A stretch of DNA of 64,000 bases. It comes from Patescibacteria group bacterium. Its GTDB lineage: Bacteria > Patescibacteriota > Patescibacteriia > UBA10025 > JAHIVO01. Numbering within the stretch: position 1 is the first letter of the stretch; each line of letters begins with the position of its first letter. The translations under genes were made by a program, and so were the position numbers. Under the pieces are notes generated by a model that worked only from the letters and a program-made list of their open reading frames with translations, was not told where the DNA came from and did no database searches. Location: positions 1,008,048 to 1,072,047 of the forward strand of contig JBMOKY010000001.1 in NCBI GenBank assembly GCA_049325535.1. The letters run 5' to 3'. Positions 7,153 through 63,912 of this stretch are shown piece after piece.

Positions 7153-8280
7153 ATGTTACCCAGAAATGGACGTGAGCTGAAAGCCATGTTGCTGTGCGAA
7201 GGAATGCGTGGTGATATCATGGTCACTTCGCATTTCGCTCGCCAAAATCCATTCCGGATGCGACGGGGTAGCCTCAGTTCCGGCGGCAAAATAAAGCTGA
7301 ACTGCGGCCTTTTCGTCAATGTCCCAATCTATACCCATCCGACTGAACTGCACGCTGTGGCAGACGGTACTGATGATGAGAAAATCTACATTTGTGCCGG
7401 CACCAAAGTGTTAAGTGGCGCCCGAGTGCTCCCCGCACCGTTATGGTATAGGCGCCGCATCAAGGACTTGTTCCTCTCTCAGATACTGACCGCGCACAAT
7501 CGTCAGATTGCCGGGGCCGTGTACGAGGGGTGCGTGCACTTCAGTCGCGGCGACCAAGGCAAATTCTGCGTGATTAACCATTCGGTGTCCACCGGTGATC
7601 CGCGGTTGACGATGAAAAAACCGGAGCTGATCATAGCCGCACTGGAACAAATCCCGACTGACGATTATGACGGCCTGACGCTCAATGGCGGCATGACTCT
7701 CGCTCCAGGCCGCGGTATGGAACTGATGGTACCGGTTGTTGCGGCGATTTCCAAGCGATTTCCTCGGTTACCGATTGCGATTGAAATCACTCCGCCTGCT
7801 GAGCTTGACTGGATTGACCGGCTGGCAGAGGCGGGTACCAGTAGTCTGATGATGAATCTCGAATGCTGGGATCCGGACATCCGGCGTCGGATGATCCCGG
7901 GCAAAGACCAGCTGTGCCCCCGTGAATCATATCTGGCCGCATTTGACCGGGCCGTAACTCTCTTCGGACGTGGTCGCGTTACCAGCTGCTTCATTGTCGG
8001 CACTGAACCCGATTATTCATTGAAACAGGGTATCACCGTCACGGTGGAGCACGGGGTCATTCCTTCGCCGCTTGCCGGCCGAGGGTTTGAGGATATTCCT
8101 GAGTACCCCTTCAGAAATGGCTGGAATTACCCCTTCAGGTGTTCTTGGTTCTCATTGATGCAAATCATGGATTTTGCCACGCGTTGCATGCGGGAGCATA
8201 ATCTGGTGTCGACTGACAAGGCTGGATGTGTCGCGTGCAAGATGTGTGATTTAATCGGTGACTTTGGGACGTCTTGCTAA
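7153..8280 (+). CDS. Hypothetical TIM-barrel (radical-SAM-like core) protein with a C-terminal Cys cluster; function unknown
   Basis: AGGAG sits 8 nt before the ATG. The central segment (DGLTLNGGMTLAPG...IAIEITPP...LMMNLECWDP) resembles the glycine-rich / beta-alpha-barrel core of radical-SAM enzymes. No N-terminal CxxxCxxC is present; instead the C-terminus reads GCVACKMCDLIGDFGTSC (C-x2-C-x2-C-x9-C). Confidence 0.5.
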   Translation: MLPRNGRELKAMLLCEGMRGDIMVTSHFARQNPFRMRRGSLSSGGKIKLNCGLFVNVPIYTHPTELHAVADGTDDEKIYICAGTKVLSGARVLPAPLWYRRRIKDLFLSQILTAHNRQIAGAVYEGCVHFSRGDQGKFCVINHSVSTGDPRLTMKKPELIIAALEQIPTDDYDGLTLNGGMTLAPGRGMELMVPVVAAISKRFPRLPIAIEITPPAELDWIDRLAEAGTSSLMMNLECWDPDIRRRMIPGKDQLCPRESYLAAFDRAVTLFGRGRVTSCFIVGTEPDYSLKQGITVTVEHGVIPSPLAGRGFEDIPEYPFRNGWNYPFRCSWFSLMQIMDFATRCMREHNLVSTDKAGCVACKMCDLIGDFGTSC

Positions 8281-8366: not shown

Positions 8367-8570
8367 ATGGCTCAATGTCCCGTCTGTGAAGGAAGTGGAC
8401 GCTGTCCGGAATGTGATGGCACCGGCCATTCATTCATCGGTGACCTGGCCCGGAATATCCCCATCCCCGGGGATGACGATTCCGACGCGTCGACCTGCAA
8501 CCGCTGCCCCGATGGTAATGGCGATTGCTATAACTGCGACGGCACCGGCGAAGTCGACGACGACGATTAG
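8367..8570 (+). CDS. Small Cys-rich protein with four DnaJ-type CxxCxGxG zinc-finger repeats and an acidic tail
   Basis: AAGGAGGTGA RBS with a 6-nt spacer. Repeats are CPVCEGSG, CPECDGTG, CNRCPDGNG and CYNCDGTG; the C-terminus is EVDDDD. Confidence 0.7.
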   Translation: MAQCPVCEGSGRCPECDGTGHSFIGDLARNIPIPGDDDSDASTCNRCPDGNGDCYNCDGTGEVDDDD

Positions 8571-8890: not shown

Positions 8891-10495
8891 CTATAACACC
8901 TTCACCATGTATGTATCCTGGAGCGTAAAACCCAACTTCTCATAATACCCCCGCACGCCGATACCCGAAATGACGGCCAATTTTTTATAGCCATGTTCGC
9001 GAGCCAGCTCTTCGGCGCGCGCCATCAAGCGTTTGCCAAATCCGATGTGCTGCACCGCTTGCCGGCCGGAATCCACCGGCATCAGTTCCCCGTACGTGTG
9101 CAGTTCGCGAATCAGCGCGGTGTCAGTGGGAAACGCCAGTTCATTGCCGGTCATGGTAATCTTCTTCTTATCAAAAAACCGTATCACTTCCAATTTCTCA
9201 GTAATGCGATTGTCCCGATCCGGCAACCGCAAACGAGTAAAGGCATAGAGTTTCGAGCGATCATTATTTTCAAAACTGAGAAAATGTTCCGTGCCTTGGC
9301 CGGCGCGGTAGATACGGTCAACGAGTTCAGCCTCGCTCTCGGGTACGGCATCGCGTACTTCCCGACACCGAATGCATTGACAGACCACTCCCTGATCATG
9401 CATCAACTGACGCAAGTTAGTCACCAAATTGCCCGCTACAATATCATCACCCGGAATATCCCGTATCAAACGATTGATGCGGACATATGGTGGAATTAAA
9501 TCTTTCTTGATGCGAACCAACAGGTCGAGCAATTGATTACCTTCATATGGTTTATATTTGCCTTCTTTATACCACTGATAAATCTGCGCGCTTTTCACCA
9601 CCACGCAGGGATAAATCTTCAGCATGTCTGGCTGGAAACGTGGGTCAGTAAACACTTGTTTAAATACCTGATAATCACCTTCGGGTGTGGCGCCCGGCAA
9701 TCCCGGCATCAGGTGATATGTCACTTTAAATCCAAAATCCCGCAGCATAGCTGTCGCCCGAGCGATATTCTGCACATTGTCGTCGCGCTTAATGAGATCG
9801 AGCACTTGTTGGTCAAGCGTTTGCACGCCGATCTGCACATGGGTACAACCAAATTCCCGCATCCGCCACAGTTCTTCTTTGGTGACATAGTCTGGGCGGG
9901 TCTCCAAAGTTAAACCAATGATACGATGCTGGGCAGTCTCATTATGCTTCTGTGCGATGGCTAACGAGTCAGCGATAAATCCGTTGGCCCCGTCAAAGAG
10001 CCCTTTGATAAATTCCTCTTGGTATTTCTCATCATAATAAGACCACGTGCCGCCCAATACGATCAATTCAATTTTGTCGGCACTATGACCGTTGGCCTCA
10101 AATGCCTCAATACGAAGCTTCATCTGCTGGTACGGGTCAAAATGCAATTGGAGGGCGCGCTGGGCGGCCGGTTCCGAGGCGATATAGCTCTTCGGCATCC
10201 GCGCTTCAGTCGGACAATAGGCACAGCGTCCGGGGCAGGGATAGGGCTTAGTCAATACAGTCACCGGCGCAATACCCGATAACGTCCGCACGTCCCGCTT
10301 GCGCAAAACCCTCAGCAAGGTCGGATCCTGATCAGCGATCGGCACCTGACTGCGGTATTCTTTCAATATCTGGGCATTGGAATGTATGACACTGTCATGC
10401 TGAGTGGCTAAGTCGCGTTTTGCTTGGCGCAATGCCTCCTCGTCTGTTGGACGAATTTTCCGCAGGTCAGTAATGTAGGATTGTGATACACTCAT
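8891..10495 (-). CDS. elp3: Elp3-family radical-SAM / GNAT protein (tRNA U34 carboxymethyl modification enzyme homolog)
   Basis: Radical-SAM motif CPGRCAYCP plus a C-terminal GNAT domain (HIGFGKRLMARAEELAREHGYKKLAVISGIGVRGYYEKLGF). The longest ORF reaches 10636, but an internal ATG at complement 10493-10495 avoids the overlap with the divergent methyltransferase gene. Confidence 0.8.
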   Translation of the reverse strand: MSVSQSYITDLRKIRPTDEEALRQAKRDLATQHDSVIHSNAQILKEYRSQVPIADQDPTLLRVLRKRDVRTLSGIAPVTVLTKPYPCPGRCAYCPTEARMPKSYIASEPAAQRALQLHFDPYQQMKLRIEAFEANGHSADKIELIVLGGTWSYYDEKYQEEFIKGLFDGANGFIADSLAIAQKHNETAQHRIIGLTLETRPDYVTKEELWRMREFGCTHVQIGVQTLDQQVLDLIKRDDNVQNIARATAMLRDFGFKVTYHLMPGLPGATPEGDYQVFKQVFTDPRFQPDMLKIYPCVVVKSAQIYQWYKEGKYKPYEGNQLLDLLVRIKKDLIPPYVRINRLIRDIPGDDIVAGNLVTNLRQLMHDQGVVCQCIRCREVRDAVPESEAELVDRIYRAGQGTEHFLSFENNDRSKLYAFTRLRLPDRDNRITEKLEVIRFFDKKKITMTGNELAFPTDTALIRELHTYGELMPVDSGRQAVQHIGFGKRLMARAEELAREHGYKKLAVISGIGVRGYYEKLGFTLQDTYMVKVL

Positions 10496-10499
10496 ATAT

Positions 10500-11219
10500 A
10501 TGAAACAAGAGACTGCACAAAGGATTGTAGAGGAAAATAAGCGGGTATACAACCGGATTGCCCGACACTTTTCTGGCACGAGGTCGCATCCGTGGGGGGA
10601 GTTTACCCTATTTGAGCCATATGTCAAAACAGGCAATCAGATACTAGACATCGGCTGTGGCAATGGTCGCCTGGCTGGCTTTTTTGAGCAAAAAAAAATC
10701 AACTATACTGGTGTGGATAACAGCGCGGCGCTGATTGATATTGCCAAGCAGGCACACCCTGCCGCTACCTTCCTGGTCAGTGAAGCGACGCAATTGCTAT
10801 TTTCCGATGGGCAATTCGATGTGGTCTGCAGCATCGCTACACTCCACCATATTCCATCACGGGAACTACGAGCAAAGGCCATCCGAGAAGCGGTCCGCGT
10901 GCTCAAACCCGGTGGTTACCTGCTGATAACAGAGTGGAACCTATGGCACCCGCAGTGGTGGAAATTGCTGGCACACTATTCATGGCGAAAATTCACCGGA
11001 CAAAGCGATCTCGATTGGGGGGATGTCGAAAAGCCATGGAAAGATGCCCGAGGAACGGTGCAGGGCATGCGATACCTCCACCCCTTTTCCCGCCGGCAGA
11101 TGGCACGCTTGTGCACCGACCAGGGCTGTACCCTCGTCTACCAAGAGTACACGACTCAAGGAGTGCCCACCCGGTGGTACCGCGGCTATAATCTGGTCAC
11201 TATCTGCCAAAAGCATTGA
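10500..11219 (+). CDS. Class I SAM-dependent methyltransferase, Trm9-like
   Basis: N-terminus VYNRIARHFSGTRSHPWGEF resembles the Trm9/ALKBH8 MTase N-terminal motif (...HFS.TR.KPW). SAM motif I is LDIGCGNGR. It sits divergent from elp3 with start codons about 5 nt apart. Confidence 0.6.
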   Translation: MKQETAQRIVEENKRVYNRIARHFSGTRSHPWGEFTLFEPYVKTGNQILDIGCGNGRLAGFFEQKKINYTGVDNSAALIDIAKQAHPAATFLVSEATQLLFSDGQFDVVCSIATLHHIPSRELRAKAIREAVRVLKPGGYLLITEWNLWHPQWWKLLAHYSWRKFTGQSDLDWGDVEKPWKDARGTVQGMRYLHPFSRRQMARLCTDQGCTLVYQEYTTQGVPTRWYRGYNLVTICQKH

Positions 11220-11274: not shown

Positions 11275-12438
11275 ATGCACACTATATTACGAGTCGTCTG
11301 CGGCATCGTGCTGGGAATTTTTTTAGTTCCCCTGAGTGCTCATGCGCTCGGCGTGGCTGCCGAGGAGAGCGTAACCCTGGCAGCTGACGAAATCATTGAT
11401 GATAATTATTTCGCTGCCGGTAACTCCATCACCATCGATGGCACGGTCAATGGTGACGTCTACGCCTTCGGTACGGTCATCACGATCAATGGCACCATCG
11501 GTGGCGACCTAATCAGTGGCGGGACACGTATCGAAATCAATGGCGAGGTAAAAGGCAATCTCCGGGCCGGTGCTACCACCATCCAGATCAATGCCCCAAT
11601 CGGTAAAAATGTGACGGTCGCCGGCGCGACTATCGCGCTCAATAGCGACAGTTCGGTCGGTTGGAGCTTCATCGGCGCTGGTCAGACTATAAAATTCGAT
11701 GGACCGATCGGAGGAAATGTAAATGTGGCCGGCGACTCCATCACTGTAAACGCCCCGATTGGCGGCAATACTGATGTTACGATCGGCGAACAAGGTCATG
11801 TGGCACTCGGAGAAAAAGCTCGACTGGATGGCGACCTGACCTACCGCGGAACCAAGGCAGCGCAAATCAGCGCTGACGCAGTCATACGCGGCGCAACCGT
11901 GCATCGGGAGCTCAACGCAAACATCAATTTCGATAAATCATTTTTCACCCGCGCCTGGATATTTCTCAAATTGGTCAGCCTGTTCGGCACGCTGCTGGTG
12001 GGTACCATCCTGGTCAGCGTGGCAGGTGCCTGGACAGAGGAACAAACCAAAAAAATGCTGGAAAAGCCAGGGCTTCAGTGCATGTGGGGGCTGATCATCC
12101 TGATTGTCGTGCCCATAGCCGTGGTTATTCTCATGCTGACGCTCATCGGTATACCGCTGGGGGTTGTCGTCTTGGGAATGTATTTTCTGGCACTCTATCT
12201 GGCAAAAATATTCGTCGGAATCATCATTGGTAATTACATCCTGCGCCAAAATGAAGCTAAACCTTTCCCGCTCATCTGGCGCATGATGCTCGGCACCACC
12301 GTGGTGGTACTGATCGTCAATATCCCAGTCATCGGCTGGTTATGCTCACTGGGCGTAACAATCTGGTTTTTAGGTTCACTCTGGACGAGAAGCGTCCATC
12401 ATTCATCAATAACCCCTCCCTCCCATGCCAAACATTAG
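11275..12438 (+). CDS. Signal-peptide beta-helix repeat protein (bactofilin / DUF4097-like repeats) with a C-terminal multi-TM region
   Basis: N-terminal signal-like segment. The repeats INGTIGGDLISGGTRIEINGEVKGNLRAGATTIQINAPIGKNVTVAGATIAL... have the periodicity of bactofilin / adhesin-like beta-helices. Four hydrophobic helices occupy the last ~150 aa. Confidence 0.5.
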   Translation: MHTILRVVCGIVLGIFLVPLSAHALGVAAEESVTLAADEIIDDNYFAAGNSITIDGTVNGDVYAFGTVITINGTIGGDLISGGTRIEINGEVKGNLRAGATTIQINAPIGKNVTVAGATIALNSDSSVGWSFIGAGQTIKFDGPIGGNVNVAGDSITVNAPIGGNTDVTIGEQGHVALGEKARLDGDLTYRGTKAAQISADAVIRGATVHRELNANINFDKSFFTRAWIFLKLVSLFGTLLVGTILVSVAGAWTEEQTKKMLEKPGLQCMWGLIILIVVPIAVVILMLTLIGIPLGVVVLGMYFLALYLAKIFVGIIIGNYILRQNEAKPFPLIWRMMLGTTVVVLIVNIPVIGWLCSLGVTIWFLGSLWTRSVHHSSITPPSHAKH

Positions 12439-30642: not shown

Positions 30643-31803
30643 CTATCGCTTGAGCGCGTCGACACGATCCAGCTGTTCCCAAGGAAGCGACACGTCGACC
30701 CGGCCAAAATGACCATAAGCAGCCGTCTGCTCGTAGATAGGCCGCTTGAGATTGAGTACGCTAATAATGTCCGCTGGTTTCAGCGGGAAGTGCTCCTGGA
30801 CCAGGCGGATGACATCGCCATTCTCCAGAGTGCCTGTGCCAAACGTATTGACCATAATCGACACCGGCTCTGCCACGCCAATAGCATAAGCAAGCTGAAT
30901 CTCCACCCGCCGGGCGATCCCGGCCGCCACCAGATTTTTTGCGATGTACCGGGCAGCGTACGAAGCGCTCCGATCAACTTTTGAGACGTCCTTGCCGGAA
31001 AATGCGCCACCGCCGTGAGCCCCCACTCCGCCGTAGGTATCCACGATGATCTTCCGCCCGGTCAATCCGGTGTCGGCCGGGGGGCCGCCGAGCACAAACC
31101 GACCGGTGGCATTGATATGCAATCGTATCTGATCCGAATACAGATCCCCCAGCACTGGCCGTATCACCAGCTCAGTAATTTCTTTGCGAAGCTGGGAAGT
31201 GCTCACCGCTTCCGCATGTTGGGCGGCGATGACCACCGTATCGACTCGCTGGGGCCGATCATTTGCATATTCCACCGTCACCTGGGATTTACCGTCCGGC
31301 CGCAGGTACGGCAGCGTCCGATCTTTCCGCACATCGGCCAGCCGCTTGGTCAGTTGGTGTGCCAAGGCGATAGGTAATGGCATGTACTCCGGGGTCTCGT
31401 CACAGGCATACCCAAACATGAGCCCCTGGTCACCCGCACCCTGCTCCTTATCACCGCTCGCATCGACTCCCTGCGCGATATCCGGCGACTGCTCATGAAT
31501 AGTGCTCAATACCCCCACGTCATCGGCACAAAAGCCATACTCCGATTTATCATAACCGATCCGCCGAATAGTTCGCCGAACCACTTCCTGAATATTGACA
31601 TATCCGGTTGTCCGAACCTCGCCGCCTACCATGACCAATCCAGTGGTGGCAAAACACTCGACCGCCGAGCGAGATTCGGGGTCCTGACGGAGCATTTCAT
31701 CATACACCGCATCAGAGATCTGATCACACACTTTATCCGGATGACCCTCGGTGACCGACTCAGAAGTAAATAACCGTTTGTACGATGACATAAGTTCCTT
31801 CAT
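30643..31803 (-). CDS. metK: S-adenosylmethionine synthetase
   Basis: [18 protein letters not shown] and DTYGG motifs. Confidence 0.95.
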
Positions 31804-31958
31804 TTATGTAATAAAAATATCTCCGACCAAATATGGAGGAGATGTGAGTACTGCTACACTTATCTACCTACACGATTGGTAGCCGAGAATTAGCACCCGC
31901 CCGTGACGGGTTGCCGGGGAGTCACCGGGCTCGGTCCCTACTCCCACTCGTGATAAGC
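31804..31958 (-). ncRNA. SAM-I (S-box) riboswitch with an SD-sequestering expression platform, in the metK leader
   Basis: The minus-strand RNA reads CUUAUCACGAGUGGGAGUAGGGACCGAGCCCGGUGACUCCCCGGCAACC...GGUGCUAAUUCU...GUAGAUAAG. This matches the SAM-I consensus: P1 CUUAUC/GAUAAG, GGGA...GCCC...UGA...CCGGCAACC, and GGUGC.AAUUC. Downstream, AUCUCCUCC can pair with GGAGAU adjacent to the metK start. Confidence 0.8.
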
Positions 31959-32208
31959 TATTTGATTGTCAAAAGGTAGCGTCAGTATACGTAGCGCTCA
32001 TCTTCCCGTCAAGCGCTCCAAGCATTCGGCGTGATAGATGCGCCATGAATACATGAATAAGCGTGGTCCATGCGTACGCACAGAATTCCCCGATGACTGA
32101 CATGCGTTTAGCGGAATCGAGCCGAAGCAATGCGTTTGCCCGCATTCTTCCGGTGCTTCTTTTGCGCTACCTTTTTCTTCTTATTCATAATATATGACTA
32201 ATAATATG

Positions 32209-33336: not shown

Positions 33337-33408
33337 TGCCCTCAAGAGGAGTCGAACCTCTATTACAAGATCCGGAATCTTGCGTCCTATCCATTGAACG
33401 ATGAGGGC
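33337..33408 (-). tRNA. tRNA-Arg (anticodon CCG)
   Basis: The minus-strand sequence GCCCTCATCGTTCAATGGATAGGACGCAAGATTCCGGATCTTGTAATAGAGGTTCGACTCCTCTTGAGGGCA folds as a cloverleaf. It has a 7-bp acceptor stem (GCCCTCA/TGAGGGC), T-loop GGTTCGACTCC, and anticodon loop TTCCGGA. CCA is not encoded. Confidence 0.85.
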
Positions 33409-42957: not shown

Positions 42958-43098
42958 ACCAAACTCCCTTCGTATCGGGGTTATATTGTTTACGAACTAT
43001 TATTGTTTTTCTTTTGAGAGAAGGGGTTATCTTACACTACTCGTCAAACAACTGTCAAAAAGTTATTGCGACATGGTATACTCACCCCACTGCCTATG

Positions 43099-44028
43099 AA
43101 AAAAGTACTCGTCACCGGAACATTTGACCTCCTCCATCCCGGCCACTACCGACTGTTACAATCGGCCAAGCGTCTGGGGGATTTTTTGACGGTGGTCATC
43201 GCCCGTGACGAGACGGTCAAGCGCGTCAAAGGATACAATCCTTTCTTCACCCAAGCCGATCGGGTACAAAACATGCGCGCACTCGGCATCGCCCACCGGG
43301 TCATCCCCGGCGGCAGCGGCGATAAATTGTCAGTCATTGCCTCCGAACGGCCTGATATCATCTGTCTGGGGTACGACCAGCATGCCTTTACCGATGACCT
43401 CGAGAAAAAGCTAACTGCCCGTGGCTTCACCCCGCGCATCGTCCGCATCCGTCGATTTAGCGCTGGTATGTTCCGCACCGGCGGATTGCATGCCGCTGGA
43501 TTAGTGGCCCTGCATCGTACTGATCCGACACTGGTTATCGAACCGCGCTATGCCACCGCCCGGAATTTCACCGGTCAACGGCTATACCACAACCGTATTA
43601 TTCTGGGACGAACGCATGTGGCGCGTATGGTGAAGCGCGCGCAAACCGTCTTGCGCCGCCAAGGATACGGACTCAAGATTTGGGATTGTTACCGGCCGTT
43701 ATCCGTACAAAAAATCCTCTGGTGCCATCTGCCGGATGAGCGCTATGTCGGCAATCCAAAAAAAGGGCCGGTGCATACGCGTGGCACCGGTGTGGACTGC
43801 ACCCTAGTGGACCGGCGCGGACGCCCATTACCCATGCCCACGAAGTACGACGAATTTTCAGATCGAGCGCATCGTCAGCATCCCCCGCATCCGACGACCG
43901 GATGGCGGCACTCCCGCATCCTCGAACAAGCTATGACCCGTGCCGGATTCGAGGCGTTGCCCACCGAATGGTGGCATTTTTCTGATCCCCGGTGGAAACA
44001 ATACCCGGTTATCGATATCGCCATCTGA
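43099..44028 (+). CDS. Two-domain fusion: cytidylyltransferase-like HxGH nucleotidyltransferase domain + VanX/DdpX-type D-Ala-D-Ala dipeptidase (M15D) domain
   Basis: N-terminal MKKVLVTGTFDLLHPGHYRLL (HxGH nucleotide-binding motif, ~130 aa). The C-terminal half carries VHTRGTGVDC (SxHxxGxAxD-like) and EWWHFSD, the Zn-ligand and catalytic motifs of VanX-family dipeptidases. The longest ORF starts at 43066. Confidence 0.65.
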   Translation, partial: KKVLVTGTFDLLHPGHYRLLQSAKRLGDFLTVVIARDETVKRVKGYNPFFTQADRVQNMRALGIAHRVIPGGSGDKLSVIASERPDIICLGYDQHAFTDDLEKKLTARGFTPRIVRIRRFSAGMFRTGGLHAAGLVALHRTDPTLVIEPRYATARNFTGQRLYHNRIILGRTHVARMVKRAQTVLRRQGYGLKIWDCYRPLSVQKILWCHLPDERYVGNPKKGPVHTRGTGVDCTLVDRRGRPLPMPTKYDEFSDRAHRQHPPHPTTGWRHSRILEQAMTRAGFEALPTEWWHFSDPRWKQYPVIDIAI

Positions 44029-53034: not shown

Positions 53035-55185
53035 TCAATCGGAGCGTCGCCGCTGCTGCCGCTCCCGGATCACATAGGCAGCGATGCCCGCGCCGATAGC
53101 TACCGCCGCTCCAATCAAATAATACACCACCGCTCGCTGTCCGGCCGGCGCTGGCACGACTACCGACGGCTGATCCGTACTGGCACCCAACACGTCTCCG
53201 GTCGATACGGCGATGGATGAGGGAATAGATATGTCGTCCTGAGTGCGGGGCAATAAACGCAAGCCGGCGCTCGTCTTATCCAATACCCCAGTGACGGTAA
53301 CCAGATCGCCCGGATTGAGTTCCGGTTGAACGATACCCGTCTTGGCCTGAATATATACGCGGAGGACATTGCCATCCTCATCCATCAAATAAATCCCCCG
53401 ACTATTTGCCCGATCCACGGTGCCGGTCACCTGCAGCAGCTGACCGATCATCTCGTCCGTCACCTCGCCAATGCCAACCTGGCGGAGTTCCAGTGATGCG
53501 GTGGAGACGTCAGTGCCCATGCCCTCCGCGTCCTCAGCGGGTGGCACTATTTCATTTTCCGCGCCCGGCGTCAGCACCTCGGTCCACTCCCACCGGCCAT
53601 CGGCAAACGCAAACGCATAGTCCTTTGGTGCCTTGGGAATGGTAACGCCGTGAATGATAGTGCCGGCTGGATCAACCAGATATAATTGTTCACCGGAATT
53701 GTTCAGGGTTATCTTGCTTTCCACCCGCTCAACCACCAGAAAAGCGCCAGCTGGGACCGTGCTATCATCACCAAATGTAAAATATCGCGATCCATCCGTC
53801 AGCTGCCACCCATCGAGCGATACGTCCCTGTCGCCGCTGTTATGCAGTTCAATAAACTCGCACACACTATCGCTCGGCATACAGCTGGGCAATACTTCGG
53901 AAATGATGATGGCATCGGAATAATCATAGTCCGAAACAATAATGTCCGTCCGTGTCATGTGTGTTGCGCCGTGCTCATCGGTCACCGTCAACGACACGCG
54001 AAACGCGCCAGCCCGTGTGTACGCATGGGTGGGCTTCTTTTCCGCTGACGTCTGGCCATCGCCAAAATCCCAGGCATAAATCAGTTCATCCGCATCACTA
54101 TCATTGCTTTCTCCACCATCGAAGGTGATATCATGGCGGACTTTTACTTCTGTGGCTGATGCCTGTATCACCGCTTCGGGAGGAGTATTGGAAATGATAT
54201 GTCGGTTTACTGCTCCGGGAGTCATTGCGTCAGTCCATTGCCATACATCCCCAATCAAACTATACGATTGCCCCTCATGAGAACCAGTATACGCTACACT
54301 CTCTACCTCGGTATTGTCCGGCCAGTACAATCGGACAGAGTCGGCGGTATTGTTGAGTGCAATGCCAGTGAGAGATTTAGGTAATACCAGATAGGATAGT
54401 GCCGCGATGGTTGGATTACTTATCGCATATCGCCGCGAACTATTGTCTCCAATTTTCCATCCAGTCAAATCGACTGCCACGGTACCGCGATTAAATAATT
54501 CGATGAATTCAGTGTCATCAGTACCCACCGGGTCCGGGAGAAATTCAGAAATGCATACGGTCGTGGCATATGCGATCGGTTCGTCATCAGCCGTCGCATC
54601 CGCCACAGGTACATATGAAGTATTATGGGGCTGGGGAACATCGAGGGTGGAAAAATCAGCGGCATTATTGTCAGTATCGATGCCGTCGGTACGCACAATA
54701 CTTTTATTGCTCCCCGGGTTCGCTGCCGGCGCTGATTCAGCGTGCGTAGCAGAACCAAACCCCACCAGATCGACAATACCGCCATCGGCATCAATCAACT
54801 CCACAGAGTTATTATCGGCCATCGAGTTGCCGCTCGAATAGGTAATATCAGGCTCGGCCGTGCCGAGATAACCAGTAGGATGCGTGATGAGAAAATAATG
54901 CCCTGGCGGAATAATCATGCCTGTAAATGAGTCAACCAGTACATACGCCGTACCACTGCTCGTCCGCTTCACCATTGACCATCCATCCAGAACAACATCG
55001 CTGCCGGTCGGATTATAGAGCTCGATAAATTCGTTGGTGCTCTGTCCACTCGATCCGCTCACCATTACTTGGTTAATAACTACATGGGTAGTTTCAGCTG
55101 CCATTAATCTGCTAGGCATTGCCAGAAATAATAAGAGAAATAAGGCGAGACGGGACTTGAAAGGTTGAAAGGATAAATAGTTCAT
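53035..55185 (-). CDS. Cell-surface protein with three lamin-tail (LTD) domains and a PKD domain, C-terminal TM anchor
   Basis: Signal peptide, then three LTD signatures (NEFIELYNPTGSDVVLDGW; TEFIELFNRGTVAVDLTGW; CEFIELHNSGDRDVSLDGW). A PKD-like block follows (WDFGDGQTSAEKKPTHAYTRAGAFRVSLTVTDEHG). The C-terminal TM is VVYYLIGAAVAIGAGIAAYVI followed by a basic tail. Confidence 0.7.
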   Translation of the reverse strand: MNYLSFQPFKSRLALFLLLFLAMPSRLMAAETTHVVINQVMVSGSSGQSTNEFIELYNPTGSDVVLDGWSMVKRTSSGTAYVLVDSFTGMIIPPGHYFLITHPTGYLGTAEPDITYSSGNSMADNNSVELIDADGGIVDLVGFGSATHAESAPAANPGSNKSIVRTDGIDTDNNAADFSTLDVPQPHNTSYVPVADATADDEPIAYATTVCISEFLPDPVGTDDTEFIELFNRGTVAVDLTGWKIGDNSSRRYAISNPTIAALSYLVLPKSLTGIALNNTADSVRLYWPDNTEVESVAYTGSHEGQSYSLIGDVWQWTDAMTPGAVNRHIISNTPPEAVIQASATEVKVRHDITFDGGESNDSDADELIYAWDFGDGQTSAEKKPTHAYTRAGAFRVSLTVTDEHGATHMTRTDIIVSDYDYSDAIIISEVLPSCMPSDSVCEFIELHNSGDRDVSLDGWQLTDGSRYFTFGDDSTVPAGAFLVVERVESKITLNNSGEQLYLVDPAGTIIHGVTIPKAPKDYAFAFADGRWEWTEVLTPGAENEIVPPAEDAEGMGTDVSTASLELRQVGIGEVTDEMIGQLLQVTGTVDRANSRGIYLMDEDGNVLRVYIQAKTGIVQPELNPGDLVTVTGVLDKTSAGLRLLPRTQDDISIPSSIAVSTGDVLGASTDQPSVVVPAPAGQRAVVYYLIGAAVAIGAGIAAYVIRERQQRRRSD

Positions 55186-61697: not shown

Positions 61698-61862
61698 GAG
61701 ATACCTCCTCGGGGTTTGACCTCGTTATTTCTATATCAATGAACCGATATGATTTTTCTGGGAAAAACAAAGAGTTTTCCATCTTACCGTCACCCCGCAC
61801 CGATTGTCAAACTGCTTGCACATTTGCTGTGGGTCACTATAATGGGTAGAATTACACCTGTG

Positions 61863-61949
61863 CTGGAGTGGCGGAATTGGCATACGCGCTAGCCTTAGGA
61901 GCTAGTGCCCGCAAGGGCTTGAGAGTTCAAATCTCTCCTCCAGCACCAA
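61863..61949 (+). tRNA. tRNA-Leu (anticodon TAG), type II with long variable arm, CCA encoded
   Basis: GCTGGAG...CTCCAGC acceptor stem, anticodon stem-loop CTAGC-CTTAGGA-GCTAG, variable arm TGCCCGCAAGGGC, T-arm GAGAG-TTCAAAT-CTCTC, 3' ACCA. Confidence 0.9.
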
Positions 61950-62005: not shown

Positions 62006-63049
62006 TTACTCGGCGATACGCCAGATGAGCGTTTCGCCGGCGCACAAAGGGCGGACGGTCACTGCGCCGAATTCCAGCATCGGCCGCACGATCCAGGGTT
62101 GCCGGACCAGCGTGACGGTATCGGCATTCCGCGGTACGCCGTAAAAATCCGCACCGTGAAAACTGGCAAACCCTTCCAGCCTGTCGAGCATACCTGCCGC
62201 CTCAAACACTTCGGCGTACAATTCCAGCGCACATGGCGCGGAATAGCAGCCAGCGCAACCGCAGGTGGACTCTTTTGCCTGGAGCGGATGCGGCGCGGAA
62301 TCAGTGCCGAGAAAAAACTTCGGCGAGCCCGACGTCGCCGCCGCGAGCACTGCCTGCCGATGCGGTATGGCACGCTTCAGTACCGGACGACAGAACAGGT
62401 GCGGACGGATGCCGCCGTCAAATAAATCGGCGCGGCTGTAGCGCAGATGGTGGGCGGTGATCGTCGCTGCCACGCGAGGCGAGGCAGACTGGACGAAATC
62501 AACCGCTTCCGCGGTAGTCACATGCTCCAGGACAATTTTCAGCCCCGGAAATGATTTGACCAGCGAGGTGAGCGTTTCGTCCACAAACAACCGTTCAGCG
62601 TCGAAGGGGTCGGCCGGAGCCGTGGCTTCGCCGTGAATCGAAAGCACCAAACCGACACGTTCCATCTCCGCCAAAACCGGATACAGCCGCGACAGATCGG
62701 TCACGCCCGAAACGGAATTGGTGGTAGCTCCGCGCGGATACAACTTCACGGCGTGGACAATGCCAGATTCTTTTGCCCGCCAAACCTCTTCGACGGGTGT
62801 ATCATCGGTGAGATACAGCGTCATCAACGGTTCAAACGCTACCAGCGGACTGGCACTGATGATCTCCTGCCGATACTGGAGCGCCTGAGCCACGGTGGTG
62901 ACCGGCGGTGTCAGATTGGGCATGACGAGCGCCCGGCCAAAACAGCGGGCGGTATGATGCACCACGTCGAGTAGCGCGTCTCCCTGGCGGAAGTGGACAT
63001 GCCAATCGTCCGGGCGGGTCATCGTCAATGATTGAGCCATGCGATCCAT
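62006..63049 (-). CDS. pyrC: Dihydroorotase (homodimeric E. coli-type)
   Basis: N-terminal DDWHVHFRQGD metal-ligand motif with a characteristic length of 347 aa. Confidence 0.85.
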   Translation of the reverse strand: MDRMAQSLTMTRPDDWHVHFRQGDALLDVVHHTARCFGRALVMPNLTPPVTTVAQALQYRQEIISASPLVAFEPLMTLYLTDDTPVEEVWRAKESGIVHAVKLYPRGATTNSVSGVTDLSRLYPVLAEMERVGLVLSIHGEATAPADPFDAERLFVDETLTSLVKSFPGLKIVLEHVTTAEAVDFVQSASPRVAATITAHHLRYSRADLFDGGIRPHLFCRPVLKRAIPHRQAVLAAATSGSPKFFLGTDSAPHPLQAKESTCGCAGCYSAPCALELYAEVFEAAGMLDRLEGFASFHGADFYGVPRNADTVTLVRQPWIVRPMLEFGAVTVRPLCAGETLIWRIAE

Positions 63050-63189
63050 CCTTTCTTGGGGAATATGTTGGAGTCAATGAGCTTTCCGGTCGTTGTACCA
63101 TAGTCTCAGCCGATTGGCAATCGCGTCCGTCATGCTCCTCTCACGCCTTTTATCCGGTGGCGTTCCGTAGTATACTTCATGGTATCTAT

Positions 63190-63912
63190 ATGCCTGAATA
63201 CTCAGCCAAACTTATCTCCAAACGTACCATCGCCCGTGAAACGTGCGAATTCGTCTTCACCAAACCCGCTGGATTTGATTTCCGGCCGGGACAATTCATG
63301 ACCCTCATCCTGCCTGATCTCGACCCGAAAGTAGCCAAAGGCAATCGGCGCAGCATGTCCATCGCCTCAGCGCCGACTGACGACCTGGTCTCCTTCGGTA
63401 TGCGCATGGGCACCTCGGCATTCAAACAGCGCATCGACAAACTGAATATCGGCGAACAGATCCAAATGATGGGCCCGTTTGGCCGATTTATCATGCCGGA
63501 TGACCAGTCAATCCCACTGGTTTTTTTGGCGGGTGGCATCGGCATCACCCCATTCCTCAGTATGATTACCTATTGTGCCGCTACCAAATCACCACGAGAA
63601 CTGTTCTTACTCTATAGCAACAGCTGCATCTCAAACGCATCCTACCTGCCTGAATTAGAATCGCTGCAGAACCGTCACCCCCACCTGCACTATGTGCCGA
63701 CCATGACCGATCAGGAGCATCTCGAACACGAGTGGGTCGGACAGACCGGTTTTATCACCGCAGACATGATTAAACAGTCGGTGTCTGATTACATGCGACC
63801 ACTCTATATGATTGTCGGCCCGCCGGGTATGGTCGAGGCGATGGTCGCCCTGCTCAAGGAAATGGGGCTGCCGGAAAAACAAATCATGATCGAAAAATTC
63901 ACCGGCTACTAA
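63190..63912 (+). CDS. FAD/NAD(P)-binding oxidoreductase (ferredoxin-NADP reductase-like fold)
   Basis: RSMSIAS (RxYS FAD-binding motif) and GGIGITPFLS (NAD(P)-binding). The start is taken at MPEYSAK; the longest ORF starts at 63028 and overlaps the pyrC start. Confidence 0.55.
   Translation: MPEYSAKLISKRTIARETCEFVFTKPAGFDFRPGQFMTLILPDLDPKVAKGNRRSMSIASAPTDDLVSFGMRMGTSAFKQRIDKLNIGEQIQMMGPFGRFIMPDDQSIPLVFLAGGIGITPFLSMITYCAATKSPRELFLLYSNSCISNASYLPELESLQNRHPHLHYVPTMTDQEHLEHEWVGQTGFITADMIKQSVSDYMRPLYMIVGPPGMVEAMVALLKEMGLPEKQIMIEKFTGY

Follow-up and report, generated by a model that had tools for sequence, protein, structure and literature searches.

In archaea and eukaryotes, Elp3 activates acetyl-CoA by radical S-adenosylmethionine (SAM) chemistry and directs its addition to C5 of the wobble uridine U34 of tRNA, yielding 5-carboxymethyluridine (cm5U) (PMC6367351, PMC7663514). 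The methyltransferase Trm9 O-methylates the carboxylate of cm5U to 5-methoxycarbonylmethyluridine (mcm5U) in yeast and Haloferax (PMC4678810, PMC6144793). Haloferax (HVO_1032) and Sulfolobus likewise combine a stand-alone prokaryotic Elp3 with Trm9; there, mcm5U was shown experimentally and Trm112 is required. Haloferax Trm9–Trm112 makes mcm5U, the formation of cm5U by archaeal Elp3 has been observed in vitro, and Sulfolobus has its genes for Elp3 and Trm9 in a cluster (PMC6144793, PMC5372719). Trm9 orthologues have been reported in Sulfolobales and Halobacteriales only, none in bacteria, and Trm112-dependent methyltransferases are said to have no bacterial homologues (PMC5372719). Bacterial Elp3 has been described as a rarity confined to Dehalococcoides (PMC7663514); for this enzyme, DmcElp3, acetyl-CoA hydrolysis is triggered by tRNA (PMC6367351, PMC7663514). 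A 2026 paper states that 'numerous bacteria' have Elp3, with nothing further. Here, a stretch of 64,000 nucleotides from a Patescibacteria group bacterium (contig JBMOKY010000001.1, positions 1,008,048 to 1,072,047, forward strand; assembly GCA_049325535.1), in the following called the window, is described, in which an elp3 gene stands head to head with a gene for a Trm9-like class I SAM-dependent methyltransferase (MTase). Judged from their sequences, the two genes probably form a wobble-uridine module of the archaeal/eukaryotic type in a member of the Patescibacteria, or candidate phyla radiation (CPR).

The elp3 gene occupies positions 8891–10495 on the minus strand and encodes a protein of 534 residues with, by homology and gene calls, an ATG start at 10495. 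The product is a radical-SAM/GNAT homologue of cm5U synthases. The MTase gene follows at 10500–11219 on the plus strand and encodes 239 residues, predicted to be a cm5U34 to mcm5U34 O-methyltransferase. Between the two divergent start codons lie only the four nucleotides ATAT (10496–10499), so that the junction reads CAT-ATAT-ATG without space for an intergenic promoter. A preliminary description of this DNA had named both genes, together with the cluster motif of Elp3 and the N-terminal motif of the MTase, and had put the distance between the starts at about 5 nt; the sequence read-out and library matches agree on genes and motifs, and the distance is 4 nt. The longest minus-strand open reading frame (ORF) at elp3 spans 8891–10636 with a TTG start. 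This TTG (10636) was rejected as the elp3 start: the extension is not conserved in relatives, and independent gene calls disagree with it. In many relatives, the tblastn alignments begin at residues 1–3 of the ATG-initiated protein, and the gene calls made independently on three further assemblies of this organism agree on a 534-residue Elp3 and an identical 4-nt spacer.

The pair is not peculiar to this genome. An exhaustive profile search at E≤1e-30 returned an MTase family of 1,877 representatives (clusters at 50% identity), and most of the representatives listed consist of a single domain and measure about 220–260 residues. In a scan with one genome per species, at least 494 genomes contain a relative of the MTase; the best 80 loci, nearly all from Patescibacteria, were analysed. 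When the window Elp3 served as tblastn query, 66 of the 80 loci showed Elp3 within 6 kb of the MTase, divergent and upstream in 62 of these and on the same strand in the other four. Five of the 14 loci without Elp3 carry about 1 kb or less of upstream sequence. When the ORFs of all 80 loci were clustered all against all, Elp3 emerged as the sole conserved neighbour (64 loci), the next family reaching 16. The commoner neighbours are unrelated housekeeping genes, namely those for serine hydroxymethyltransferase, FolD, a Mur ligase, a SLOG-family protein, and NIF3. Hence, the two genes form a specific module amid variable flanks, and their pairing is far beyond chance.

Within Patescibacteria the module is conserved, and it occurs also in a second phylum, in Dehalococcoidia including Dehalococcoides mccartyi. 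The gene for DmcElp3 is itself flanked by a divergent Trm9-like MTase gene with a gap of 43 nt (CP019867.1). This MTase of 224 residues scores 114 bits against the CPR family profile and 71.6 bits against a hidden Markov model (HMM) of fungal Trm9; it is 32% identical to the window MTase and keeps the R, HH, W, PW, RYY, and N motifs, lacking W32. Five context look-ups underlie the Dehalococcoidia result: D. mccartyi and two others show the divergent pair, a fourth does not, and one contig is too short upstream to judge. The coupling of MTase and Elp3 recorded here, in 66 of 80 loci and in Dehalococcoidia, is one of gene linkage and not of activity. A gene for QueH, the epoxyqueuosine reductase that also concerns tRNA position 34, is found about 1.6–2 kb from the pair in two Dehalococcoidia loci (L085, 3140–3688 (+); L086, 2767–3327 (+)).

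The window Elp3 belongs to its family without difficulty, as the preliminary description had concluded from the CPGRCAYCP motif and the GNAT C terminus. It scores 521.6 bits against the NCBIfam model TIGR01211 (cutoff 350), with residues 18–534 covering model positions 13–522. The Pfam domains are Radical_SAM (65 bits), Radical_SAM_C (74 bits), and a C-terminal GNAT domain, with Acetyltransf_1 at 24.1 bits (cutoff 20.7). The closest matches in the PDB are DmcElp3 (5L7J, 3.9e-120) and MinElp3 (6IA8, 1.2e-114), followed by eukaryotic Elp3. DmcElp3 (5L7J/6IA6) is thus the closest solved structure, and its domain order and catalytic residues match those of the window protein. The [4Fe-4S] motif CPGRCAYCP (residues 87–95; 10211–10237 (-)) aligns to CPGKCIYCP of DmcElp3, and within it CPGRCAYC (residues 87–94) has the CX3CX2C spacing. 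A cysteine triad, CQCIRC (residues 372–377; 9365–9382 (-)), aligns to CRCIRC of DmcElp3 and represents the zinc site typical of bacterial and archaeal Elp3 (PMC6367351). The acetyl-CoA-binding GNAT/KAT domain comprises residues 479–525 (8921–9061 (-); Pfam Acetyltransf_1/7/10). K77, K193, E386, and Y441, the acetyl-CoA pocket residues of DmcElp3 according to Lin et al. (PMC6367351), are all identical in a pairwise alignment; the equivalent of E386 lies in IRELHTYG (9089–9112 (-)) and that of Y441 in GVRGYY (8942–8959 (-)). DmcElp3 lacks the N-terminal extension of the window protein, a stretch of about 65 residues that includes 11 Lys/Arg and is present in MinElp3; MinElp3 aligns from residue 39. 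The extension is strongly basic in the relatives as well and resembles the tRNA-binding N terminus of archaeal Elp3.

The MTase can be assigned to Trm9 by several comparisons. As a single sequence, its best match in the PDB is 5CM2_Z (2.1e-15), which is Trm9 in the Yarrowia Trm9–Trm112 structure. With a profile of 46 relatives, 5CM2_Z is again on top (1.7e-27, 99 bits, profile positions 25–221), in an alignment that takes in the C-terminal DV-VPW and RYYH-F motifs. As a reference, 27 full-length fungal Trm9 sequences were aligned into a profile and an HMM. In hhalign, the CPR MTase profile and the fungal Trm9 profile match end to end over 206 columns with 100% probability and an E-value of 4.5e-42, pairing residues 12–239 of the window MTase with residues 24–232 of Yarrowia Trm9. 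The fungal HMM gives the window MTase 95.5 bits and all 46 relatives 65–120 bits. The AlphaFold2 model of the MTase has a predicted local distance difference test score (pLDDT) of 96.9, and in its Foldseek ranking, Trm9 has the best target-normalised TM-score (0.82). The closest named relative comes from Candidatus Kerfeldbacteria (70% identity). Automatic JGI annotation names three of the relatives TRM9 or ALKBH8 and many others UbiE, while NCBI uses the generic term methyltransferase. On this sequence evidence, the MTase is identified as a Trm9 homologue despite its generic label in standard libraries.

The eukaryotic Trm9/ALKBH8 enzymes share with the window MTase the class I SAM fold, the N-terminal VYxxIAxHFSxTR motif, the HH, W, PW, RY-H, and C-terminal N motifs, and the functional link to Elp3. 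They differ in that the window MTase is bacterial, about 29% identical in the profile alignment, and encoded head to head with elp3. In addition, its WNLW strand is followed by a helical insert (residues 151–170), in place of which Trm9 has a shorter loop. In yeast Trm9 (ScTrm9), R29, D72, H116, W145, W168, R241, Y243, and N271 are required for activity by mutagenesis (Létoquart et al., PMC4678810). Y18, H115, R241, and N271 were modelled around cm5U, H116 was proposed to contact the cm5U carboxylate, and N271 to recognise the uracil (PMC4678810). The profile alignment finds seven of the eight essential residues kept. The N-terminal motif VYNRIARHFSGTRSHPWGEF (residues 16–35; 10545–10604 (+)) contains Y17, H23, and R28 with a spacing identical to that of Y18, H24, and R29 in ScTrm9. 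Motif I GCGNG (DIGCGNGR) is present, as is the SAM-binding Asp, D73, equivalent to D72. H116 and H117 of the motif LHHIPS (10842–10859 (+)) correspond to H115 and H116, and W146 corresponds to W145. The stretch with DVEKPW and MRYLHPF (11022–11087 (+)) supplies W180 and R191, equivalent to W168 and R241, and the C-terminal YNLVTICQK (11187–11213 (+)) supplies N231, equivalent to N271. In 80 relatives, R28, D73, and W146 are invariant (80/80), position 180 is aromatic throughout (80/80), and Y17 (77/80), H117 (78/80), R191 (69/80), and the other essential equivalents are kept in the majority. The resemblance of the MTase N terminus to Trm9/ALKBH8, noted from the sequence before, therefore extends over the whole protein and includes its active-site residues.

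In view of homology, of the conserved linkage, and of the residues for catalysis and substrate binding that are retained, a two-step pathway is the best explanation for the pair: Elp3 likely makes cm5U34, which the Trm9-like MTase would methylate to mcm5U34. By homology, the stand-alone Elp3 would bind tRNA via its basic N-terminal extension. In the radical-SAM domain, a 5′-deoxyadenosyl radical would abstract a hydrogen from the acetyl group of acetyl-CoA, supplied through the GNAT domain, and the resulting radical would add to C5 of U34 to yield cm5U34. The divergently encoded MTase, as homology and gene linkage suggest, would then use SAM to esterify the cm5U carboxylate. Arg28, His116/His117, Trp146, Trp180, Arg191, and Asn231 would herein position the carboxylate and the uracil as in yeast Trm9. 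The preliminary description had gone further and spoken of the full eukaryote/archaea-style pathway; the cm5U and mcm5U steps are predicted to be encoded, and 'full' overstates the case, since only those two steps are found here. The bacterial MnmE/MnmG(/MnmC) route to 5-(carboxy)methylaminomethyluridine, (c)mnm5U34, acts on the same position, C5 of U34, and serves the same decoding role, while its enzymes and chemistry are unrelated (GTPase/FAD, glycine, and methylenetetrahydrofolate). MnmE, MnmG, and MnmA are absent from the window, and tblastn with the E. coli queries found none in the window and the 80 CPR loci (0.9 Mb), a weak negative, as about one match per gene would be expected in 0.9 Mb even if every genome had them.

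Several points weigh against this two-step reading. Pfam and NCBIfam contain no Trm9-specific model, so no curated threshold can be applied to the assignment. The second PDB match to the 46-member profile, 3SM3, reaches 86 bits, which leaves Trm9 a margin of just 13 bits. In the Foldseek search against the PDB, 3SM3 even comes first and Trm9 second, a result that does not discriminate between them; 3SM3 is an uncharacterised archaeal (Methanosarcina) methyltransferase that lacks the HH and W motifs in the sequence alignment. The one essential residue not kept is Tyr243, which is replaced by Leu193 in MRYLHPF. In ScTrm9, this tyrosine is important for tRNA binding and catalysis, and Y243A retains about 10% activity (PMC4678810). 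Position 193 is Tyr in 47 and Leu in six of the 80 relatives. Known Trm9 enzymes, moreover, need the activator Trm112; no candidate for it is found as a conserved small neighbour in the related loci or as a fusion in eight longer family members. Finally, direct evidence for xcm5U in bacteria is stated to be lacking (PMC7663514).

The alternative that survives best concedes that the pair modifies U34 and questions the end product. The ester could be an intermediate on the way to 5-carbamoylmethyluridine (ncm5U), 5-methoxycarbonylmethyl-2-thiouridine (mcm5s2U), or a hydroxylated or other derivative, or the target of the MTase could be another atom of the Elp3-modified nucleotide. Haloferax mutants in trm9 or trm112 show no accumulation of cm5U (PMC6144793), and therefore the pathway branches there; the variation of the position equivalent to Y243 within the family (Y/V/F/L/I) points in the same direction. 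However, the carboxylate- and uracil-binding residues of Trm9 are conserved in the MTase, which moreover is a single domain of 239 residues with no extra domain such as AlkB. A different end product is hence considered unlikely, if still the most serious competitor of mcm5U34.

A quite improbable alternative is that the MTase is an unrelated small-molecule enzyme of the UbiE/MenG/BioC kind that merely adjoins elp3. Pfam reports generic class I methyltransferase domains and a weak match to Ubie_methyltran (42.8 bits), the name UbiE recurs among the JGI annotations, and several small-molecule methyltransferases stand close behind the top Foldseek matches. Against this, all 45 NCBIfam matches of the MTase, UbiE and BioC among them, are far below their cutoffs: the best reaches 66.8 bits, UbiE (TIGR01934) 59.7 bits with a cutoff of 158.35, and BioC (TIGR02072) 44.6 bits with a cutoff of 184.95. 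The comparison of Trm9/ALKBH8 with UbiE/BioC accordingly falls to Trm9: its HMM scores higher, the two profiles match from end to end, and the active-site residues are retained. The link to Elp3, moreover, persists in 66 of 80 genomes although the flanks vary, and it recurs in a second phylum. The least probable alternative by a small step, a target other than tRNA (rRNA, or protein lysine acetylation combined with protein methylation), draws on the historical proposal of Elp3 as a protein acetyltransferase and on the lack of direct substrate evidence in bacteria (PMC7663514), and it is opposed by the tRNA-binding-type N-terminal extension of the window Elp3 and by the uracil-recognising Asn and stacking Trp of Trm9 that the MTase retains.

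The spacing of the two genes deserves a description of its own. Start-codon gaps were measured in 60 divergent pairs with starts refined by homology. One pair overlaps by a gap of -20, 12 have a gap of -2 with starts sharing CATG, 17 lie at 0–10 nt, 11 at 11–40 nt, nine at 41–120 nt, and ten show a larger gap. The median is about 10 nt, compared with 122 nt for 59 other divergent ORF pairs from the same loci under the same ORF rule (Mann–Whitney p = 2e-11); the other divergent pairs within the window are 86–362 nt apart. Because the spacer is close to zero, each promoter must lie inside the 5′ coding region of the partner gene. This was one of two explanations offered before for the close starts, and it is supported; the other, a wrongly placed elp3 start, is dropped, since conservation extends to both N termini and about half of the 60 related pairs likewise have starts that abut or overlap. 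With such starts, the embedding of promoters in coding sequence is taken to an unusual extreme. The head-to-head arrangement physically locks the pair together and probably couples the expression of the two genes.

A candidate σ70-like promoter for elp3, TTGACA-16-TAAACT (10 of 12 consensus positions), is located at 10600–10627 (-) inside the MTase coding sequence, about 100 nt upstream of the elp3 start. In the consensus scan, the number of matches in the region is not above the expectation from shuffled sequence, and no comparable promoter was found for the MTase. In 41 loci, the 60 nt preceding each start show some enrichment of -10-like hexamers, which could be explained by AT-rich N-terminal codons. 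Both starts of the pair lack a Shine–Dalgarno (SD) site. This is not distinctive, as an SD-like core (GGAG/GAGG/AGGA) within 20 nt of the start is present in just six of 40 window genes. From these counts, the organism seems to rely largely on SD-independent initiation, and the rarity of SD use may permit such close packing of starts.

The enzymes and their chemistry are of a known kind; what appears new is a bacterial member with an unusual, conserved gene architecture. A literature search, which did not take in Glatt et al. 2016, found nothing that connects Patescibacteria or CPR with Elp3 or Trm9, and no description of the pair. Papers matching both Dehalococcoides and Trm9 yielded no description of it either; they name Dehalococcoides one to three times each, PMC5699542 in its reference list only. 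Hence, there appears to be no earlier description of a Trm9 orthologue in bacteria, of its linkage to Elp3 throughout a phylum, or of its position beside DmcElp3. Contrary to the reviews, a very large radiation of bacteria carries a Trm9 homologue in tight linkage to Elp3. The pair predicts bacterial mcm5U, and its recurrence suggests that many bacteria make this modification, which is regarded as non-bacterial. With these two proteins, and with the partner of DmcElp3 already identified, the Elongator pathway could be reconstituted in vitro without need of the six-subunit complex. The pair also raises the question whether Trm9 works without Trm112, and, as a shared character, it bears on the relationship between CPR and Chloroflexota. 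A broader scenario can be put forward tentatively, as a speculation more doubtful than the module itself: Patescibacteria and Dehalococcoidia might make mcm5U-type uridines with a stand-alone Elp3 and a Trm112-independent Trm9, replacing MnmEG or working beside it; the mutually embedded promoters might enforce co-expression; and the module might be ancient, either inherited from an ancestor shared by CPR and Chloroflexota or taken over from archaea.

Among the genes around the pair, a 'variant radical SAM' protein (7153–8280 (+)) is encoded two genes from elp3 and scores 147 bits against NF045502 (cutoff 125); its MSMEG_0568-like score is below the cutoff, and it is not conserved beside the pair in other genomes. 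Convergent with elp3 lies a Cys-rich ORF of 67 residues (8367–8570 (+)) with four CxxC, an acidic DDDD tail, and a weak match to DUF7895. It was considered as Trm112 and rejected, being neither Trm112-like nor conserved beside the pair. Directly downstream of the MTase, a protein of 387 residues (11275–12438 (+)) consists of bactofilin-like repeats followed by a hydrophobic C-terminal half (DUF8173); it adjoins the pair in just eight related loci.

Elsewhere in the window, a SAM-I riboswitch (RF00162, 56.6 bits, 31857–31959 (-)) lies directly upstream of metK (30643–31803 (-)), the gene for S-adenosylmethionine synthetase; SAM is consumed by both Elp3 and the Trm9-like enzyme. Two tRNA genes are present, tRNA-Leu(UAG) at 61862–61948 (+) and tRNA-Arg(CCG) at 33337–33408 (-). 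The former has U34 and is a conceivable Elp3 substrate; in Thermoplasma, ncm5U34 was described on the tRNA-Leu(UAG) isoacceptor (PMC5372719). The dihydroorotase gene pyrC (62006–63049 (-); TIGR00856, 423 bits) is divergent from an ORF at 63028–63912 (+) for an NAD-binding flavin reductase-like, possibly PyrK-like, protein. With longest-ORF starts, the two overlap by 22 nt at their 5′ ends, which may represent a second head-to-head pair or a plus-strand start located further downstream. A protein of 716 residues (53035–55185 (-)) contains three lamin-tail domains (LTD, 183 bits) and a PKD domain and is probably a surface protein. An apparent fusion at 43066–44028 (+), with a TTG start, joins a cytidylyltransferase-like domain (residues 16–126) to a D-Ala-D-Ala dipeptidase domain (Peptidase_M15, residues 143–308).

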